Positions 1,472 through 63,115 of a DNA stretch of 64,000 nucleotides are shown piece by piece. The notes beneath the pieces were generated by a model. The model searched no databases, was not told the origin of the DNA, and worked only from the letters and a program-made list of their open reading frames with translations. Each line of letters starts with the position of its first letter. Position 1 is the first letter of the stretch. Both the position numbers and the translations under genes were made by a program. The stretch lies in IMG/VR virus record IMGVR_UViG_3300029705_000009; one strand, given 5' to 3'. Source of the DNA: a virus (taxonomy: Duplodnaviria > Caudoviricetes).

Positions 1472-2365
1472 CTTGTGATCTATTATATAGCGTGTTTTAG
1501 AAATTTGACAATTATATTTCTCTTCAACTTCTTTAAAATATGGAGAATGTATATATTCTGAATCTTTCATTCCTAATTCTTTTGCTCTTTTCTTGATCAT
1601 ATGTAACATACCTGAATCAGATATGCTATTGAGCGTGATGTAAGAAGGAAGACCAAGAAAATTAATAATTCTACCGAAAGCTTGATATATATTTCTTCCC
1701 ATTTGATAATCAGACACGTCTGTTTTTACGGTATAATGATGCTTCAACACATATCCTCTATCAACCAAAGGAATACTTCTAATCGGGCCATAATATCTAT
1801 CTTCTTCGATACAGTCATCAATAATATGACGCAATATATTCGATATTTCTATTTCCCTTCCGGTACAAAGACTTAATGTATTTCCATTAACATCAGACGG
1901 CTTCAGCTTTGCTAATTCACAATAATCCTTACCGCCTATACCCTCAAATGTTCCCAACAATACATACTTGTCTTTAGGATTCGCAAGCTGCATCACCCAG
2001 TCCAAAACCATACTTTCAGTTACTATTTTTTGATTGAATACTCCTTTGTTTATAAATCCATTAAAATCTTCGTATTTAATTTCAATATAATGATTTTGAT
2101 TGTCTGCTACTAAATGCTGACTTAAACACCATTGCGTATACATTGATAAATGGCTATTAATAACATCTAATGATTTTATCGTTGGAATATTCAACATTTT
2201 GTAAAATTCTATAATCTCATATACTGTAAAGTCGTGAACATCTTTGTTATATTCAAATTCCATTTCGGAGGTTTTTTCAAACAATCTTTCCAGATATCCG
2301 TTTGGCAGAGTGGTTTCTTGATTTTTTTCATAGATATATCTTGATTTTAACTCTTCATTATACAT
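1457..2365 (-). CDS. MrpR/YopR-like phage repressor (catalytically dead tyrosine-recombinase fold)
   Basis: MYNEELK..KDVHDFT N-terminus; catalytic Arg replaced (EGIGGKD..EL); no HxxR; synteny as SPbeta yopP-Q-R. Confidence 0.8.
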   Translation of the reverse strand: MYNEELKSRYIYEKNQETTLPNGYLERLFEKTSEMEFEYNKDVHDFTVYEIIEFYKMLNIPTIKSLDVINSHLSMYTQWCLSQHLVADNQNHYIEIKYEDFNGFINKGVFNQKIVTESMVLDWVMQLANPKDKYVLLGTFEGIGGKDYCELAKLKPSDVNGNTLSLCTGREIEISNILRHIIDDCIEEDRYYGPIRSIPLVDRGYVLKHHYTVKTDVSDYQMGRNIYQAFGRIINFLGLPSYITLNSISDSGMLHMIKKRAKELGMKDSEYIHSPYFKEVEEKYNCQISKTRYIIDHKDYLD

Positions 2366-3626
2366 ATGCTTCTACCTCCTGTATTATTTTTTCAATACCA
2401 TCCACAACAACCTTTTTAGGTGTTCTTGAACGGAATTTCTTGTTATCCAACTGTTCAACTTTCTCTATTACGGCATCAATAACTTGACACATGTGTCTTT
2501 TATCTTTATCTTTGTAATAATTAAATACACACATGATTGCAGTTAACTTCTTATATGAATATGACTGTGTAATATATTTTGTATCATATTCTGTCAGCAT
2601 ATTAAAATTATCAGTTAATTCTTTTATGGCAGATATTAATACAACCTTTTCTTTTTCTTTTGAGGTATATCCTTTAAAATAGAAATAATCAATCAATCCA
2701 GACAACTCTGCAAAATTAATTATTCCCTGGTTCATACTAATTAAACCTTGTAAATTAAACTGAGAACTTCCATTTAATCTCTTTACGACGGAATTTGATG
2801 CTTTATATGAATCCATCGCATCACTATCAGTCTTAGGCATTCTCGTCTTTTGAGCTTCCTGATAAACGAATTGTCTTGCCTTATCTTCCATGAAATTAAC
2901 AATTCTCAGTTCCATAGTGTAATTAAAATCCGGATTGTTGATATTTATCCTACATGCTGCTACGTATCTGTGATATCCATCTAAAATATCAAATCCTCCT
3001 AAGGATTTAATTACTAACTCTTTTGTTTCGTCATCATAATAAAAGTCTGAGTCTATTTCTTGTGGAATGTTTAATGTAAATGGAGTAGGAATATAAATTC
3101 CATCATTGTACATTTTTGTAATTGATTTGATCGCCGTTTCGTTTATGGTAATTTTATATATCTCTTTACCACCCCTTACAACTTTTTGCATAGTTCTCTG
3201 TGCATTTTCGTTGTAAGTTATTAACTGCGCATCTCTCAATTTCATTAACATTCTAAAATCTATCTTACCAGTCCATTGATCATCTGTTACTTGAATCATT
3301 TCGAATCTTAAAGGAAATTTTATTTTATCCACATTATACTTTGAATTTTTATATCCTCTAATTTCCTGATCAGTAAAATAATCCTCAAATCTTATCCTGG
3401 TATTTGGAATGTTATTTTTAATTGAATCTAATAAACAAAATAAAATAAATTCTGACGCTTCTTGGACGGGTTTTCTTAATGCTAGATAATCAGATGTAAT
3501 GCCTTTGGGGATCTCATATGTTTCTTTTGCATATATACAAATTTGCTTGCACAACTCTGTATTAGCAGTAATTTTAAGAATCTTTTCTTCTAGATATTTC
3601 TCCAAATTTTCATTTGCTGTTAACAT
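2358..3626 (-). CDS. YopQ-like DGQHR/DndB (ParB-superfamily) protein
   Basis: YNENAQR and FDILDGYHRY motifs; lies between recombinase and MrpR-like genes. Confidence 0.75.
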   Translation of the reverse strand: MLTANENLEKYLEEKILKITANTELCKQICIYAKETYEIPKGITSDYLALRKPVQEASEFILFCLLDSIKNNIPNTRIRFEDYFTDQEIRGYKNSKYNVDKIKFPLRFEMIQVTDDQWTGKIDFRMLMKLRDAQLITYNENAQRTMQKVVRGGKEIYKITINETAIKSITKMYNDGIYIPTPFTLNIPQEIDSDFYYDDETKELVIKSLGGFDILDGYHRYVAACRININNPDFNYTMELRIVNFMEDKARQFVYQEAQKTRMPKTDSDAMDSYKASNSVVKRLNGSSQFNLQGLISMNQGIINFAELSGLIDYFYFKGYTSKEKEKVVLISAIKELTDNFNMLTEYDTKYITQSYSYKKLTAIMCVFNYYKDKDKRHMCQVIDAVIEKVEQLDNKKFRSRTPKKVVVDGIEKIIQEVEAYV

Positions 3627-3651
3627 CTTATGTCCCTTCCTTTCTGAAATG

Positions 3652-3680
3652 ATTATAGTCTTTTTTTATTATTTTGTCTA
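3652..3680 (-). promoter_or_regulatory. sigma-A promoter for yopQ-yopR-like genes
   Basis: TAGACA-17-TATAAT. Confidence 0.65.
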
Positions 3681-3722
3681 GTCTTTTTTGTCAAAATGGT
3701 GCTAAAATATTATTTCATTTAC

Positions 3723-4733
3723 TTAATCATATAATGAAGCAATTGTCGTAATAGCATCTCTTTTGTCCTGGTTAAAAATCTTCGTATACCTTTTAGTTGG
3801 TGCTGTCGTTTTATGTCCTAAAACATCTGCAACTAAATAAATATCTTTTTTTGCCTGGTACAAATTTGTGCCACATGTACTTCTTAATTTGTGTGGAGTG
3901 ATATGCTTATTTACAACAGGTTCTGTATGTTTTTTGATGATATACTCAATGGATCTAACAGTCATTCGTTTTTTCTGATTTGAAATAAATAAAGCCCTGC
4001 ATGATTCTCCGTTTAAGATTTTTTCTCTTTGCTCTAACCATAAACTAAGAAACATACAAGTCTTTTCATCAATAAAAACTTTTTTACTAATATTTCCTTT
4101 TTCAATTACTTTTATAGATTTTTCTTTTAAATTGATATCTTCTAAATTTATTTCACTTAACGCAGTAACTCTCAATCCATTAACAACAGGTATTCTAAAC
4201 AATAAATAATCTCTAAATTTCCAATTTTGTTGTTTTGCAACGGCCAAGCTATTTCCAGAACCTTTAATTATCTGATTTTCTACTAACTTTACCTCCTCCG
4301 GTGTTAGAAAGATAACATCTGTCTCTTGGATTTTAGGACGTTCTATCTTCTTATTAGAAAAAGGACTGGATTTTACATAGTCGTTTTTTACTAAAAATGA
4401 GAAAAAAGCACTTAATGAAGAATAAATACATGCTTTAGTTGCATTTGATAATTCTTTTACCTCATCTCCTTTGTTATATATATTTATTTTAGTCATATAA
4501 CGTTCAACATCAAAAGAATCAATTTTGTCAATATCAGAAATATCTAACGAATTTATATCGTTATTAGAGTAGTCCTCTAAAAATCTAATAACGTTAGTAA
4601 CATAACGAAATTTTGTCGTGTGGGATTTCTGACTTAATGAATAGTAAAATTTAATCATGTAATCCGGCATACTTGCTATTTTTTGCTGTATTTTCTTTTC
4701 CGTATCAATTTTATGCTCTAATCTTCCTTGCAT
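3723..4733 (-). CDS. tyrosine recombinase (YopP/Xer-like)
   Basis: Intact R(GLRV), K(EKGN), HxxR(PHKLR), LGH and Y(KRY). Confidence 0.92.
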   Translation of the reverse strand: MQGRLEHKIDTEKKIQQKIASMPDYMIKFYYSLSQKSHTTKFRYVTNVIRFLEDYSNNDINSLDISDIDKIDSFDVERYMTKINIYNKGDEVKELSNATKACIYSSLSAFFSFLVKNDYVKSSPFSNKKIERPKIQETDVIFLTPEEVKLVENQIIKGSGNSLAVAKQQNWKFRDYLLFRIPVVNGLRVTALSEINLEDINLKEKSIKVIEKGNISKKVFIDEKTCMFLSLWLEQREKILNGESCRALFISNQKKRMTVRSIEYIIKKHTEPVVNKHITPHKLRSTCGTNLYQAKKDIYLVADVLGHKTTAPTKRYTKIFNQDKRDAITTIASLYD

Positions 4734-4746
4734 ATCAATATCTCCT

Positions 4747-5145
4747 TTACCATTTTAATGTTAATTCTTCTCTACTAGGCACTGATTTTGCTTTTAATTT
4801 TATTGCAGTATCCCTCCATTTCCATATATATTCTTGGAATACATTTTTTCTTTTGTCTGATATTTCATATTTATATTTTTTCATTTCTGCTATTGCCCAT
4901 TGTGTTGCATAAAACTCTTCTTCACAACGCTTCATACCTGGTTTATTTGTCATAATATGACCAATTTCATGTAATAAATCAAATAAGGAAGTAGGCGTTG
5001 GATTTAAAAAATTATCACAAGATATACATATAATTCTTTCTGGCACATAACAATATGCTCCTTTTTCATTAGTAGGTCTAAAATTAATTGTGTTACAATA
5101 TTTAACTATAAGATCGTTTTGAATTTGTAATACCGATTTCTTCAT
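4747..5145 (-). CDS. HExxH zinc metallopeptidase-like (ImmA/IrrE-like)
   Basis: LLHEIGH..EEEFYATQWA. Confidence 0.6.
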   Translation of the reverse strand: MKKSVLQIQNDLIVKYCNTINFRPTNEKGAYCYVPERIICISCDNFLNPTPTSLFDLLHEIGHIMTNKPGMKRCEEEFYATQWAIAEMKKYKYEISDKRKNVFQEYIWKWRDTAIKLKAKSVPSREELTLKW

Positions 5146-56305: not shown

Positions 56306-58888
56306 ATGTCAGAATACGGACTTAAGATAAAGAACTTTGAAGCCGGTTCTTTATATGGATACAACTTGGGTATTAGAGATAGGCTTGATAGTACAGATGC
56401 AATGCTTTCCAATAGTTTATTTAGTGATTTCCTGAAGGAAAACGGACTTAATGTTTGGAGAGGTGAATCCACTAGAGATGTTATCTGTATAGAGTTTAAT
56501 TATGGCACTCGTTCATACGAAGACGAAATTAAAAATTTTGACAAAATAATAAAAGATATTCAAAAGGACGAAATGTTGTCTGATGACATTAAAGAGGAAC
56601 GTGTCCAAAAGATAGAATTCTTAAAAGAACGTGCAACAATAAATATAGATAAATATCATAAAATATCTCATCAGGAAATAAGAATGCTTTTTTACACTCA
56701 GGGTGTTGATATAAACTATCAGACTTATAACAAAAAAGGAGAAGTAATTAAGGAAGAGAAAATCCACTATAAAATGCTATATAGGACTCCCGGTAAAGCA
56801 AAAAAAGGATCTTGTATGTTTATTAACGAAGATTTATATGATAAAGCCATAGAATTTTTGTATATGGGGATTCAATTACCAAAAGACAATTCTCCTATTG
56901 TTGAAATGGGTGCATACTCCTCTCTTATTACTTCTTCTATCGTTGGAAAAGTTCAGATTTTACCGGAACAGATTTTAGTATTACAAGATGTGGATTCTTT
57001 TTTTCAAACTAATGTTGTTAGCGTGGAAACTGATGAAGATAAACATTGTAAAGCAGTTCCTATAGATAATTATCAAGTAAAAAACACTTTATTTGATGGA
57101 CAGGCTTTGATAGACACATCTATTTTCCCAGACTGGGGAGAAGGTTATATTCTCCTTAGACATCATTTATGTAAGATGGCAGCGTTTCATTCTGATATTC
57201 AAAAATTTATGAAAGATTATTTCGGAGATAAGTATGAAACTGCAACTGTAAAAGATATGTTTGGAAGAGATGTCCGAGTAAAAGACATAAGGCTTATTAC
57301 AACAGACAATGCGATGAAGTGGCTTAAGTTTAATGTTACTTTTGAATATTGGAGTGATTATGTTAGAGCAAACAATAGTATGTTTGGCATTGTAAAAACA
57401 GCTCATGAAAGTAAACTTGGTGAAGTTCAGAGAATGAGTTATCAGATGATTAACGCTCTTGATATGAATATTATGCCACAGGTTGTTCAGTGTAGTATGG
57501 ATTATATAGAGAAGTTAAAAACAAATGACGATGTGTTTTTGAATTATCTTAGAGATAATACTAATTTTTCAAATGACTATGAAGTATTGGTAGCTTTGGT
57601 TGAGCAAAATAGAGATTTTCTAAGAAGTGAATATTTTAGACATCGCAAGGAATGGATTGTTAAATCTTATGTGATGAATTTTAAGAATGGAAAAATCATT
57701 CAAAACGCAGATAATTTGGTTATTATAGGTTCTCCATACGCTATGTTGCTTCATTCTGTTGGTGTTGATGTTAATACTGATCCTACGTTCACTATAGAGC
57801 AAGACACTATACAGTGTTGGACAGAAAGATTTGGCGATGGCGAATACTTAGCAGAGTTTCGCTCTCCATTTAATAGTAAAAACAATATGGGCTATGTACA
57901 TAATGTGCATCATGAATACTTTGATAAGTATTTTAAATTTGGGAAACAGATTATTGCTGTAAATATGATTGGTACTGATTTCCAGGATCGCAATAATGGA
58001 TCTGACATGGATAGTGATTCTATATATACAACAAATCATCCTGATATCGTTCAGTATGCAAAATATTGTTATCTTAACTATCCTACCATTGTAAATAATA
58101 TACCTAAAGAAAAAAATAGCTATTCTTTAAGTTTGGAAAATTATGCTAACATTGATAACAACTTAGCTGCGGCACAATTAGCAATTGGAGAATCAAGTAA
58201 TTTAGCACAGGTATGTTTAACATATACATATAATTTTGATGATCAGAAGTATAAAGATTATGTATGTATTCTTTCTGTGCTTGCTCAAGTAGCCATAGAT
58301 AATGCAAAGCGTAGGTTTGATATTGATTTGACAGAAGAAATTAGTCGCATAAAAAAAGATATGAATATCAAAACTAATGGTTATCCAGCCTTTTGGAGTG
58401 TTATTAGAAGAGATTTCAATAGGAGACGTATAAATAAAAATTTAGTGTGCCCTATGAATTATATATTTGATATTGAGGTTGGAAAATATCGAAGTAGTGC
58501 TTCTACTCTACCTATGAATGAGTTTTTCGTCAAACACAATGTTGACTTAGACAGAAGAAAATCCAAGAAGGTTGAAGATTTAATTCAAAAATATTCCTTG
58601 TCATTATACGAAAACAATGTTGATGGGGAAGATGAAAATGAAAATTATCTTTTACTTAGGACTGATTTTGATGCATTAATTAACGATATTCAGCAGATTT
58701 ACATATCTAAAAATTATTTAGGAATGATGTCTTGGTTAATAAATAGAGCATTTTCAATTGGTTCTGGTGTTAGAAGAAATTCTGAAAATATTATTTCAAC
58801 AATTAACACAAACAAATCTTTATTATTAAAGGTGTTATATAATGTTAACAAAGATGCATTTTTACAGTGTTTTTATAGAAAAGAATAG
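56306..58888 (+). CDS. YonO-like single-subunit DNA-dependent RNA polymerase
   Basis: RTPGKAKKG, LFDGQ, FRSP, NNGSDMDSD metal-binding motif; near HU as in SPbeta yonO-yonN. Confidence 0.85.
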   Translation: MSEYGLKIKNFEAGSLYGYNLGIRDRLDSTDAMLSNSLFSDFLKENGLNVWRGESTRDVICIEFNYGTRSYEDEIKNFDKIIKDIQKDEMLSDDIKEERVQKIEFLKERATINIDKYHKISHQEIRMLFYTQGVDINYQTYNKKGEVIKEEKIHYKMLYRTPGKAKKGSCMFINEDLYDKAIEFLYMGIQLPKDNSPIVEMGAYSSLITSSIVGKVQILPEQILVLQDVDSFFQTNVVSVETDEDKHCKAVPIDNYQVKNTLFDGQALIDTSIFPDWGEGYILLRHHLCKMAAFHSDIQKFMKDYFGDKYETATVKDMFGRDVRVKDIRLITTDNAMKWLKFNVTFEYWSDYVRANNSMFGIVKTAHESKLGEVQRMSYQMINALDMNIMPQVVQCSMDYIEKLKTNDDVFLNYLRDNTNFSNDYEVLVALVEQNRDFLRSEYFRHRKEWIVKSYVMNFKNGKIIQNADNLVIIGSPYAMLLHSVGVDVNTDPTFTIEQDTIQCWTERFGDGEYLAEFRSPFNSKNNMGYVHNVHHEYFDKYFKFGKQIIAVNMIGTDFQDRNNGSDMDSDSIYTTNHPDIVQYAKYCYLNYPTIVNNIPKEKNSYSLSLENYANIDNNLAAAQLAIGESSNLAQVCLTYTYNFDDQKYKDYVCILSVLAQVAIDNAKRRFDIDLTEEISRIKKDMNIKTNGYPAFWSVIRRDFNRRRINKNLVCPMNYIFDIEVGKYRSSASTLPMNEFFVKHNVDLDRRKSKKVEDLIQKYSLSLYENNVDGEDENENYLLLRTDFDALINDIQQIYISKNYLGMMSWLINRAFSIGSGVRRNSENIISTINTNKSLLLKVLYNVNKDAFLQCFYRKE

Positions 58889-59809: not shown

Positions 59810-59883
59810 TTTTTTGCATAACTAAATAAAATAATACAACAACTTAATATTGATATAAATGTGGAGTGTCTTGCTCCACAAAT

Positions 59884-59954
59884 TGGGGATTCGCCAAGTG
59901 GTTTGGCAATCGGCTGTTAACCGATCTACGGGGGTTCAATTCCCTCATCCCCAG
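59884..59954 (+). tRNA. tRNA-Asn(GTT)
   Basis: Cloverleaf; ATCGG-CTGTTAA-CCGAT. Confidence 0.88.
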
Positions 59955-59959
59955 GTTAC

Positions 59960-60033
59960 TGGGGCATAGTCCAGCTCGGAAGGATACTTGATTTGGGATC
60001 AAGTGGTCGTGGGTTCAAATCCCACTGCTCCAT
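59960..60033 (+). tRNA. tRNA-Pro(TGG)
   Basis: CTTGA-TTTGGGA-TCAAG; GGTTCAAATCC. Confidence 0.88.
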
Positions 60034-60040
60034 TTATTAT

Positions 60041-60113
60041 AGCTGGCGGCAGGTAGGAATCTGACCTAGCCTCATAAGCTAGGGAAACCCGGCTCAATTC
60101 CGGGGCGTAGCAA
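60041..60113 (+). tRNA. tRNA-Met/Ile2(CAT), atypical
   Basis: CTAGC-CTCATAA-GCTAG; CTC T-loop; bulged acceptor. Confidence 0.65.
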
Positions 60114-60129
60114 TTAAAAGGAAAATAAA

Positions 60130-61160
60130 TAATCCCACTACTCTTCCACCTGTGAGGAATAAACCAGGAACGCATGTCAAAGGAAGACCTTCTCTAAATG
60201 CCTGAGACACGTTGGTGGTTAACTGCTTACCACCTTTATAAATAATATGGCGAACTTTAAAAGACGAGTGGGCATAGCTAAAATTGCTGGAGAGCCGAAA
60301 ATAGCACATTAACCAGATTCATCAAACGGCGTGTTCCAAACGAGTTAGTAATCTTGTGGTGAGACGAAAGCTGCTGAGAAAGTCTCAGGTTTATTTACTC
60401 TTCTATCCTAGTGTAGACAGAGCTGAGATTTCGTCATTATGACGTTTTCGTTATAGGTGATTCACTACCTTAAACGTGAGACGATAAAGAAGGGTATAGA
60501 CTCCCAACAAAGAACAGCGCCTATAGGGCATTAATAGTGTGAAGGCTTTGGTTGTCGTTAGTATGGGCTTACCAAAGCAGTATACGTCCGACGGGACTGA
60601 CACCCAGGAAAGACTGGGCAAATTTGAAAGTGTTCCGCTACTTAAGGCGAATTATGATAACAGAAGTTCCTACACCTCTCAACGATGTGTCACATAGGAA
60701 CACATATACATAGGCTTACAAGATACGCTGCAACGCCTTGTGTAAAAACTTGGGTAAGGTTCTTATTGTTTGCAGACAGTAAGAAATAGTCAGGGGTAAA
60801 ACATCGCCAAAGTTTAGCCTTTTTGTCACCCTGATATATTTGGCAGTTTGTAGAACTGCCCTCTGCTTACCAGAGCAACTAAACTGGAGGGATTGTAGCG
60901 TGTCCCAGAATAGAGAAATCTACGCTACTTTTATTTTGCCGAAGAGGCCACTTGCAGAACGTAGAACCGTTAAGGTAGAACGTAAACTGGATATCCGGAA
61001 ATCCGATGTTTTCAGCTAGTTGACTGCTTCACGCTGACAAATTTATGAACAAAAACCGTTAGAGGTTTTTATCAGAGACGGTGCATGCACTGAAACTGAA
61101 TTTGAGCTTTTGAATTGAGAACTTCGGTTCTGTAGAGAGTTGCACATAATGTCCAGCTCT
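60130..61160 (+). ncRNA. large structured ncRNA region (one or several RNAs)
   Basis: ~1 kb without credible ORF between tRNAs; many long-range helices and pseudoknots. Confidence 0.6.
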
Positions 61161-61169
61161 TGATTCTTT

Positions 61170-61241
61170 GGGAGGTTCGTATAGTGGTAAGTACACGAGA
61201 TTTTCATTCTCGTAAGAGGGGTTCAATTCCCCTACCTTCTG
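61170..61241 (+). tRNA. tRNA-Glu(TTC)
   Basis: CGAGA-TTTTCAT-TCTCG. Confidence 0.88.
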
Positions 61242-61247
61242 TGGTTT

Positions 61248-61348
61248 GGCAGTTGGTTATGCTTACGTTTATTTGGGTGGAGTAATTACCATTCTGGGTA
61301 TCCAGTGAGAAACCTATCGGGTGCACACGAGTTCCTTCGGGGGCTGCC
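61248..61348 (+). ncRNA. candidate ~100-nt ncRNA
   Basis: Closed by GGCAGTT/GGCTGCC; lies between tRNAs. Confidence 0.4.
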
Positions 61349-61357
61349 TTTTTATAT

Positions 61358-61430
61358 GCATTTGTGATGTAATTGGCTAACATACCTGCCTTCCAAGCAG
61401 GTTATGCCGGATCGTTCCCGGTCAAATGCT
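61358..61430 (+). tRNA. tRNA-Gly(TCC)
   Basis: CCTGC-CTTCCAA-GCAGG. Confidence 0.88.
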
Positions 61431-61519
61431 CTCAACCGAATTCACAACGCCTCTGATTCAAGCGCAACCCTGTGAATCTTTGTATTAGAAGGAGTCAGGT
61501 ACGTAACTGATTTCTTATT

Positions 61520-61591
61520 GGCTCTATGGTCTAGTGGTTATGACGCTACCCTGTCACGGTAGAAGTGCGAGTTCAATTCTCGCTAGGGTCG
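61520..61591 (+). tRNA. tRNA-Asp(GTC)
   Basis: CTACC-CTGTCAC-GGTAG. Confidence 0.9.
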
Positions 61592-61597
61592 TTATTT

Positions 61598-61670
61598 GGG
61601 GCATTAGCTCAGTTGGGAGAGCACCTGCCTTGCACGCAGGGGGTCATCGGTTCAAGTCCGATATGCTCCA
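61598..61670 (+). tRNA. tRNA-Ala(TGC)
   Basis: G3:U70; CCTGC-CTTGCAC-GCAGG. Confidence 0.92.
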
Positions 61671-61674
61671 TTTT

Positions 61675-61761
61675 GCCTGTTTACTCTAATTGGTAAGAGG
61701 GCAGTCTTGAAAACTGCTGTAGCTGTGAAAGGCGATTGGGGTTCGAGTCCCTAAGCAGGCG
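61675..61761 (+). tRNA. tRNA-Ser(TGA)
   Basis: GCAGT-CTTGAAA-ACTGC; long variable arm; G73. Confidence 0.85.
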
Positions 61762-61812
61762 TGATTATTATCCCATTAAGGGAAATTTATAAATAATAAA
61801 AGGATGAAATAA

Positions 61813-61986
61813 ATGATTAATATCACTAAACAGGAAGCATTTAAGATGAGAGAATTGGGATTTTCTGACAAAGTACATAAAACATACACTAAACACCCTA
61901 CCTATTTTTTGACTGAAGATGTAAAATGTTTAAAAGCATTAAATGATTACAAAAGAGGGCTCATAAAGAATGGGGATCGGAATTAA
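61813..61986 (+). CDS. 57-aa hypothetical protein (not in track)
   Basis: MINITKQEAFKMRELG..*. Confidence 0.6.
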   Translation: MINITKQEAFKMRELGFSDKVHKTYTKHPTYFLTEDVKCLKALNDYKRGLIKNGDRN

Positions 61987-63115
61987 TAAAAATTTATCTC
62001 AAGAAGATAAGACAAAATTATATAAAAGCAAATTAGAAAAAATCAATAAAGATATTGAAGTAATAGGTGATTATGTAGATACGAAAACCAAAATTAGACT
62101 TAGGTGTAAAAATTTGCATGAATGGGATACTAAGCCTATGAATCCGTTAGAAGGTAAAGGTTGTCCTATATGTTCTGGAAAATATACAAATACAATAAGC
62201 TTTGTTGAAAAAATGGAAAAAATAAATAATAACATAGAAATTTTATCAGAGTATATTAACGCAAAGACTAAAATTAAATGTAGATGCTTACTTGATAATT
62301 ATGAATGGAATGCAACCCCTAATCAATTACTAAGCGGTAAAGGCTGCCCTAAATGTTCAAAAAGAATACGTTATACGCATGATGATTTTGTGTCTATCAT
62401 TGAGGATAAGTTTGATGGAAAAATAAAAATAAAATCAAAATATAATGGGCAATTAAATAGTTTAAACTGTGAATGTCTTGTATGTGGCAATGAATGGACA
62501 TCAAAACATGCAAGATTAGTATTTGTCGCTAAAACAACACCTTGTATAAATTGTGCCGCAAAAATAAGAGGTGAAAAATCAAGAGATACTGAAGCTGATT
62601 TTATTAGTAAGTTGAGTAAGATTACTGATAACATAACATTGGTTGGGAAATATGAATTATCTAGTGTAAAGACCGAATTTTATTGTAATATATGTGAATC
62701 ATATTTTAAAGAGTATCCGGCAAAAATTCTAGTTAGAAACGGAAAGTGCCCGTGTTGCGGTTTAAGTAAAGGTGAAAAGAAAATATTTGAATATTTAAAA
62801 AAGCATAATATTGAATTCGAAAGAGAGTATTCTTTTCATGATTTGTTTAGTGATAACGGAACTTTGTTACGTTACGATTTTGCAATAATAAAAAACAATT
62901 CTGTAAATAAAATTATAGAATTCGATGGCGTGTTTCACTATGAAAAGGTTTATCCGGATCACGACCTTGAAAAGCAACAACGTTATGATGAAATCAAAAA
63001 TAATTATTGTTCTAATCATAACATTGAAATACTTCGTATTCCTTATTGGAATTATGAAAATATCGAAAAGATATTGGATGACTTTTTAAATAATAAAAAT
63101 TTTTGGAAACACTAA
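61970..63115 (+). CDS. putative homing endonuclease: Zn-ribbon repeats plus C-terminal Vsr/PD-(D/E)XK-like domain
   Basis: Repeated GCPxC modules; SKGE..YDF..IEFDG..H..LRIPY. Confidence 0.8.
   Translation: MGIGINKNLSQEDKTKLYKSKLEKINKDIEVIGDYVDTKTKIRLRCKNLHEWDTKPMNPLEGKGCPICSGKYTNTISFVEKMEKINNNIEILSEYINAKTKIKCRCLLDNYEWNATPNQLLSGKGCPKCSKRIRYTHDDFVSIIEDKFDGKIKIKSKYNGQLNSLNCECLVCGNEWTSKHARLVFVAKTTPCINCAAKIRGEKSRDTEADFISKLSKITDNITLVGKYELSSVKTEFYCNICESYFKEYPAKILVRNGKCPCCGLSKGEKKIFEYLKKHNIEFEREYSFHDLFSDNGTLLRYDFAIIKNNSVNKIIEFDGVFHYEKVYPDHDLEKQQRYDEIKNNYCSNHNIEILRIPYWNYENIEKILDDFLNNKNFWKH

Follow-up and report, generated by a model that had tools for sequence, protein, structure and literature searches.

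The locus analysed here raises the question of what kind of RNA is encoded by a stretch of about 270 nucleotides (60130-60400) lying among the tRNA genes of a phage, which a sequence-only reading had proposed as a candidate multi-pseudoknot RNA, possibly ribozyme-like or akin to the large ornate RNAs of phage tRNA clusters. The window (the whole stretch of DNA analysed, 64,000 nucleotides) comes from a provirus record of 153,849 bases that is 88% complete. Near-identical copies of this phage are present in animal faecal metagenomes, and a more distant relative, whose neighbouring 115-aa protein is 54% identical, sits as a prophage in a contig with the label Ruminococcus sp. AM36-2AA; the phage family is likely one of Bacillota gut phages. 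The family and the order of the Ruminococcus sp. AM36-2AA genome were used as a stand-in for the true host, and relatives of the phage were collected via the neighbouring proteins.

The tRNA cluster and the proposed large RNA

The stretch belongs to an array of short folded modules (60115-61165, ~1.05 kb) located between a tRNA with a CAT anticodon and tRNA-Glu, and the boundaries 60130-60400 cut through this array. The tRNA cluster carrying it stands behind an HU gene and includes, on the + strand: a leader hairpin (59860-59880) just before the first tRNA, found as the same hairpin in six relatives and resembling a terminator on the - strand only; tRNA-Asn (59883-59955) and tRNA-Pro (59960-60033), both 5' of the array in the presumed transcript; the atypical tRNA-CAT (60042-60112), a cloverleaf with an acceptor-stem bulge and an altered T-loop; and, at the end of the cluster, tRNA-Glu, -Gly, -Asp, -Ala and -Ser (61169-61762). 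The tRNA-CAT, missed by both ARAGORN and Rfam, is real, as had been claimed: its cloverleaf is kept in five relatives (L136, L232, L336, L342 and L440), and ARAGORN names the L440 homologue as tRNA-Met. It could be a nuclease-resistant or decoy tRNA. A promoter scan gave nothing clear above chance level.

Other features were observed around the cluster: a structured element of ~110 nt after tRNA-Glu (61250-61357), common to L124, L129, L176 and L336; an HNH/zinc-finger homing endonuclease directly after the tRNA cluster (61970-63115); and an 860-aa protein (56306-58888) that is kept across the phage family, belongs to PHROG 8308 (unknown function), has no Pfam match and is possibly a single-subunit RNA polymerase. 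HNH or GIY-YIG genes lie in or next to the same tRNA cluster in relatives, and homing endonuclease genes at the cluster are a possible driver of module shuffling. In L340, an unrelated methyltransferase/AraC insert (1520-5022) splits the HU-tRNA region after tRNA-Asn, as if this tRNA acted as an integration site.

Part of the original description of the stretch was confirmed. It is non-coding, structured on the + strand and tRNA-associated; all five pairings proposed for it (ten motifs) are present at their positions; and no Rfam family covers it, a cmscan-type check at gathering score and at E < 10 having returned tRNAs only and, for 60115-60520, nothing beyond chance. GOLLD and ROOL, each a single conserved RNA several hundred bases long in which long-range helices covary, are located among phage tRNA genes. 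The stretch is like them in being non-coding, structured and among phage tRNA genes; unlike them, it consists of separable 25-65-nt units strung together, it has no Rfam match, it is not conserved end to end, and the GOLLD and ROOL family models gave no match at gathering score or E < 10.

The covariation check on homologues supported the short hairpin and not the long-range stems. The hairpin 60214/60229 (GGTGGT/ACCACC) is the only pairing of the original set with support, in the form of compensatory changes. The stem 60134/60267 (CCCACT/AGTGGG) has lost one or both strands in L336, L341 and L440; in L440, 2 of 7 pairs are left of the stem 60167/60331 (GGAACGC/GTGTTCC), 4 of 8 of the stem 60201/60382, and 6 of 8 of the stem 60158/60388, with a new, uncompensated mismatch. 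Two more long-range stems found in this analysis also fail when mapped onto L440. Two of the long-range stems first proposed compete for bases 60388-60389, the strand 60382-60387 has nearer local partners than 60201, and the MFE of the whole-stretch fold has a z of -0.15 against shuffles. In favour of one RNA, the complementary strings do exist, strong stems show a mild excess over shuffles (two thresholds give p 0.01-0.02, two stricter ones 0.2-0.3), the near-identical copies of the phage have exactly this arrangement, and the stem 60134/60267 is intact in run X14.

The ribozyme-like character suggested for the stretch was not borne out: inspection by eye for hammerhead, group I and HDV-like cores brought no ribozyme core to light, and there was no Rfam match at E < 10. 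A tmRNA, a permuted tRNA, a hammerhead, a theta ribozyme and a Cas12a or type I-C repeat showed no fit by eye, the tmRNA reading having no ARAGORN match either. A duplicated 8-mer (60138, 60396) could have marked an insertion element or an intron, a reading rejected because the word opens several post-tRNA modules in relatives. Run X14 suggested a 140-nt unit with the 60134/60267 stem as its closing helix, which was rejected because three relatives are without the stem.

Short modules shuffled between phages

The stretch 60130-60400 is the first quarter of an array of 25-65-nt structured modules, many of them compact H-type pseudoknots. All those within the stretch are on the + strand. M1 (60138-60175) holds a 25-nt H-type pseudoknot with an A-rich loop (60144-60168; stem 1 60144-60147/60156-60159, stem 2 60149-60152/60165-60168); it is present in L336, L341 (where it is alone), L440 and two read sets, and keeps 8 of 8 pairs with one compensatory change from C-G to A-U, based on three distinct rows and not significant by itself. 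M1b (60176-60212), which separates M1 from M2, is variable; it can be aligned in L336 and L440 but has diverged there. M2 (60213-60262) comprises the hairpin 60214-60219/60229-60234 and a conserved A/U-rich tail, and is possibly a pseudoknot through a weak, predicted 3-bp second stem; the hairpin shows two compensatory pairs in L336, while in L440 a different stem has formed by compensation; run X14 has a compensated stem too, as read from the table of differences for a contig of low depth. The linker that follows (60263-60279) includes the 3' strand of the 60134/60267 stem; it is kept in run X14, and other modules take its place in L336 and L440. M3 (60280-60330) has conserved ends and a variable middle, and occurs in other contexts in L336, L437 and L440; the pairs of its predicted pseudoknot (60287-60290/60313-60316 and 60294-60297/60327-60330) are invariant, so there is no covariation support. 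M4 (60331-60394) has the local stems 60340-60344/60353-60357 and 60360-60365/60382-60387, and is 99% identical in L440, its sole homologue, where the lone change turns a C-G pair of a local stem into U-G; this fits the stem, but is weak evidence and no true covariation.

Behind the stretch, also on the + strand, the array continues with a two-hairpin module ending in a U run (60396-60452; present in L124, L129, L293, L336 and L345, directly behind a tRNA in several), three units treated below, a predicted H-type pseudoknot with the top descriptor score in the island (60889-60928; related segment in L176), and further conserved non-coding modules (60945-61165) common to L129, L136, L176 and L336.

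The relatives carry these parts separately and in other orders. In L124, L129 and L345 a tRNA directly precedes the equivalent of 60396-60452, so that 60115-60395 is optional there. From the stretch, L341 holds 60138-60174 only and L437 holds 60280-60330 only; L336 has 60138-60262 and, 200 nt further on, 60276-60330; in L440 a 65% copy of 60138-60249 is followed, past other modules, by a 99% copy of 60280-60394, both halves being ~200 nt further apart than in the window. With four to six short modules travelling separately and the long-range crossings failing the covariation test, the reading of the stretch as a single ornate RNA of ~270 nt is not supported and is largely refuted; the locus is almost certainly a modular array of separately shuffled RNA units. 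Independent homologues are few (3-4 per module). Most human-gut relatives are without a match to the modules, BLAST of the stretch or of the modules against phages and plasmids gave chance matches (two intergenic matches were inspected), and exact-pattern scans of viral contigs gave noise or nothing. Compact pseudoknots with A-rich loops were counted in eight islands that have modules in common, with a descriptor devised in this analysis: the tRNA strand has 28, its complement 7, and shuffled sequences give 5.9 ± 2.1.

Two other arrangements were observed in the islands of relatives. In L436, ~300 nt of the island are duplicated nearly exactly within one phage (4895-5230, 5950-6290). A non-coding stretch of ~800 nt after tRNA-Met, unlike the short modules, is common to L437 (5640-6470) and L440 (1300-2100), and might form a single large structured RNA, as GOLLD does.

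Units resembling host antitoxin RNAs

Three units of the array, all on the + strand, resemble antitoxin RNAs of the likely host group. The first ToxI-like unit (60450-60488; z = 4.2) scores 30.4 bits with a covariance model built from host ToxI repeats only, and is the top match of this model in the 64-kb window (E ~1e-3 over 109 kb, by a rough calibration); the model also detects the corresponding unit in L336, L341, L440 and L231. The second (60623-60660; z = 6.7) matches, at 85% over 34 nt, the ToxI repeat that precedes the L379 ToxN gene, and scores just 13 bits with the same model. Both are 34-39-nt H-type pseudoknots with the ToxI sequence pattern. The third (60655-60708; z = 6.8) is an AbiF-type RNA unit, a hairpin with the conserved abiF loop motif, which matches at 70% over 60 columns the RNA upstream of an Abi_2 gene (L445) and is not reported at this position by Rfam RF03085 at E < 10. 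These z scores compare alignment to host antitoxin regions, taken from in front of ToxN, CptN, TenpN and Abi_2 genes, with that of shuffled modules, and 19 other island segments reached 1.5 or less. By these alignments the three downstream units are copies, in sequence, of the ToxI and AbiF antitoxin RNAs of the host.

The layout around the copies differs from that of the host loci. The ToxI, CptI and TenpI antitoxins are short H-type pseudoknots with an A-rich loop, a topology shared by M1 (PMC3401426, PMC4627078, PMC12283969). The units 60450-60488 and 60623-60660 match ToxI in sequence and differ in having no tandem repeat, terminator or toxin gene after them; the ToxIN/CptIN/TenpIN locus layout (tandem repeats, terminator, toxin gene) was not encountered, and the units are single. 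The unit 60655-60708, which lies outside 60130-60400, shares its leader, stem and conserved loop with the abiF motif RNA/RCd22 antitoxin (RF03085; bioRxiv 10.1101/2025.04.15.648962); unlike host abiF loci, it is a single copy with no abi gene downstream. The toxins are common in genomes of the likely host group, where those above the cut-off were found as follows: ToxN in 43 of 251, CptN in 22 of 201, TenpN in 8 of 201 and Abi_2 in 48 of 151. None of these four genes is present in the provirus, whose record lacks a part that could carry one, so the units are orphan antitoxin copies in a toxin-less phage as far as the 88% complete record goes.

Similar copies occur in the relatives. Two-repeat ToxI arrays (L345:3255-3325, L437:5359-5434) are 72-86% identical to the host array upstream of ToxN in L371 (the L345 copy 86% over 73 nt, E 4e-15) and, by their similarity, look like recent capture. 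The AbiF RNA of L293 matches the host locus L471 at 87% over 55 nt (E 9e-12), and a CptI copy in L336 has a z of 7.6. Some weaker or additional likenesses were also observed: a CptI-like unit followed by a second CptI-shaped pseudoknot (L336:1953-2033, L440:3610-3690); pseudoknots (L342:4601-4641, L232:2254-2282) with a by-eye likeness to divergent repeats in front of TenpN-like genes (L422, L423), the alignment not being significant; and, in the window, a segment between tRNA-Gly and tRNA-Asp (61441-61477) with a weak Rfam abiF match (26.2 bits, E 0.075), which is probably a second AbiF-RNA mimic.

M1-M4 match no sampled type III antitoxin family in sequence, and on this ground they cannot be filed under the sampled antitoxin RNA families. 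Against ToxI, CptI, TenpI and AbiF regions (~95 host regions, one family sample) their z scores range from -0.4 to 1.5, and their scores with the ToxI and CptI models are below 8 bits. BLAST against 401 genomes, at low sensitivity and with 2 candidates scored per genome, gave no host counterpart of M1-M4; nor did the M1 pattern in 201 host genomes, the M3 pattern in 191 or the M1-M2 model in 146. The host matches of M3 are all inside ORFs, and M1b has no host match. M2 as a CptI was rejected (6.7 bits, only the A/U tail in common), and the TenpI alignment was too poor to build a model.

A probable decoy role and its alternatives

The toxins of type III systems, which are ribonucleases, are kept bound by pseudoknot RNAs that they themselves excise from a repeat transcript, and are released when the host is shut off during infection (PMC4627078, PMC13728456). 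For AbiF the holding RNA is a hairpin, which neutralises the toxin in trans too (10.1101/2025.04.15.648962). Phage PhiTE evades ToxIN by expressing a ToxI mimic of one repeat kind that must expand in tandem, a single pseudo-ToxI repeat giving no protection in an over-expression assay (PMC3475682). By analogy with these systems, the array probably acts as an antitoxin decoy against bacterial suicide defences; that it is a multi-family antitoxin-decoy transcript resembling the PhiTE pseudo-ToxI is held with slightly less confidence. The array would be transcribed together with the tRNA cluster during infection, and tRNA processing, together with cleavage by the toxins themselves, would divide the transcript into units; once the host antitoxin RNA decays, the units would bind and silence ToxN-family and AbiF ribonucleases. 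The tRNA transcript would serve as a carrier from which antitoxin copies, made in quantity, are freed by processing, and the phage family would swap these copies to suit the toxin set of the host.

Like the PhiTE pseudo-ToxI (Blower et al. 2012, PMC3475682), the array carries phage-borne, toxin-less copies of a type III antitoxin RNA, and its proposed action, here by analogy, is RNA mimicry against abortive infection. Unlike it, the array holds single units of two ToxI types and an AbiF RNA (CptI in a relative) along with many other modules, lies inside a tRNA cluster and is reshuffled between phages. The antitoxin-like units of the window are single copies, as the non-protecting PhiTE repeat was. 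Racr RNA anti-CRISPRs are solitary phage RNA units copying the RNA part of a host defence complex. Unlike Racr, the assigned units copy antitoxins, not CRISPR repeats. No literature report of a multi-family array or of phage-borne orphan AbiF-RNA or CptI copies was found, with incomplete coverage; new here are the likely Bacillota gut phage family, the three antitoxin families, the pairing with host loci and the four conserved modules.

M1-M4 resemble the assigned units in size, strand and company, and M1 in topology as well. They may tentatively be taken as further decoys of this sort, aimed at toxin subfamilies or RNA-held defence proteins that the host sample does not include, which is a weaker claim than that for the assigned units. 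It is conceivable, at a lower grade, that M1-M4 and other modules copy the RNA antidotes of undescribed defences, in arrays that also hold phage-borne AbiF-RNA and CptI mimics.

That the antitoxin copies are real and M1-M4 have another job (processing or stabilising signals of the tRNA transcript, regulator sponges, or antisense RNAs against host defence genes) is rather unlikely. It would agree with the lack of a host antitoxin counterpart for M1-M4, and with M1 and the 60396 module often being directly behind a tRNA 3' end; however, these two modules are not needed at tRNA ends, because many tRNAs lack them and both are freely swapped. Moreover, M1 corresponds in size and topology to a type III antitoxin pseudoknot, and BLAST of both strands against 401 genomes found only chance ORF matches as antisense targets. 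It is quite improbable that the modules are passengers, host fragments caught at a recombination hot spot by tRNA and homing-endonuclease genes and with no anti-defence role. Homing endonucleases and insertions in or beside the clusters fit such an origin, and single repeats may be too weak to act, but capture is limited to antitoxin units, without promoter, terminator or toxin gene and all on the tRNA strand, and phages with 68-79% identity in the neighbouring protein still maintain compensatory changes and invariant cores of 18 nt. One RNA of ~270 nt with four crossing long-range helices, whether ornate RNA or ribozyme, has next to no credibility left, its halves being found apart, alone or split and its long-range pairs broken.

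The antitoxin-decoy reading can be followed at the level of single units, since each assigned unit can be matched to a named host toxin locus. The sole phage RNA antitoxin mimic found in print, the PhiTE pseudo-ToxI, sets a single repeat type against a single system. If the decoy reading is true, exchangeable cassettes against ToxIN, CptIN and AbiF would make RNA mimicry a general counter-defence, invisible to protein-centred searches, and the long 'empty' spacers in phage tRNA clusters would acquire a function; if the antidote reading of M1-M4 is also true, the arrays would amount to a wide-ranging counter-defence made of RNA only, and could serve as a bait library in the search for new RNA-controlled toxins.
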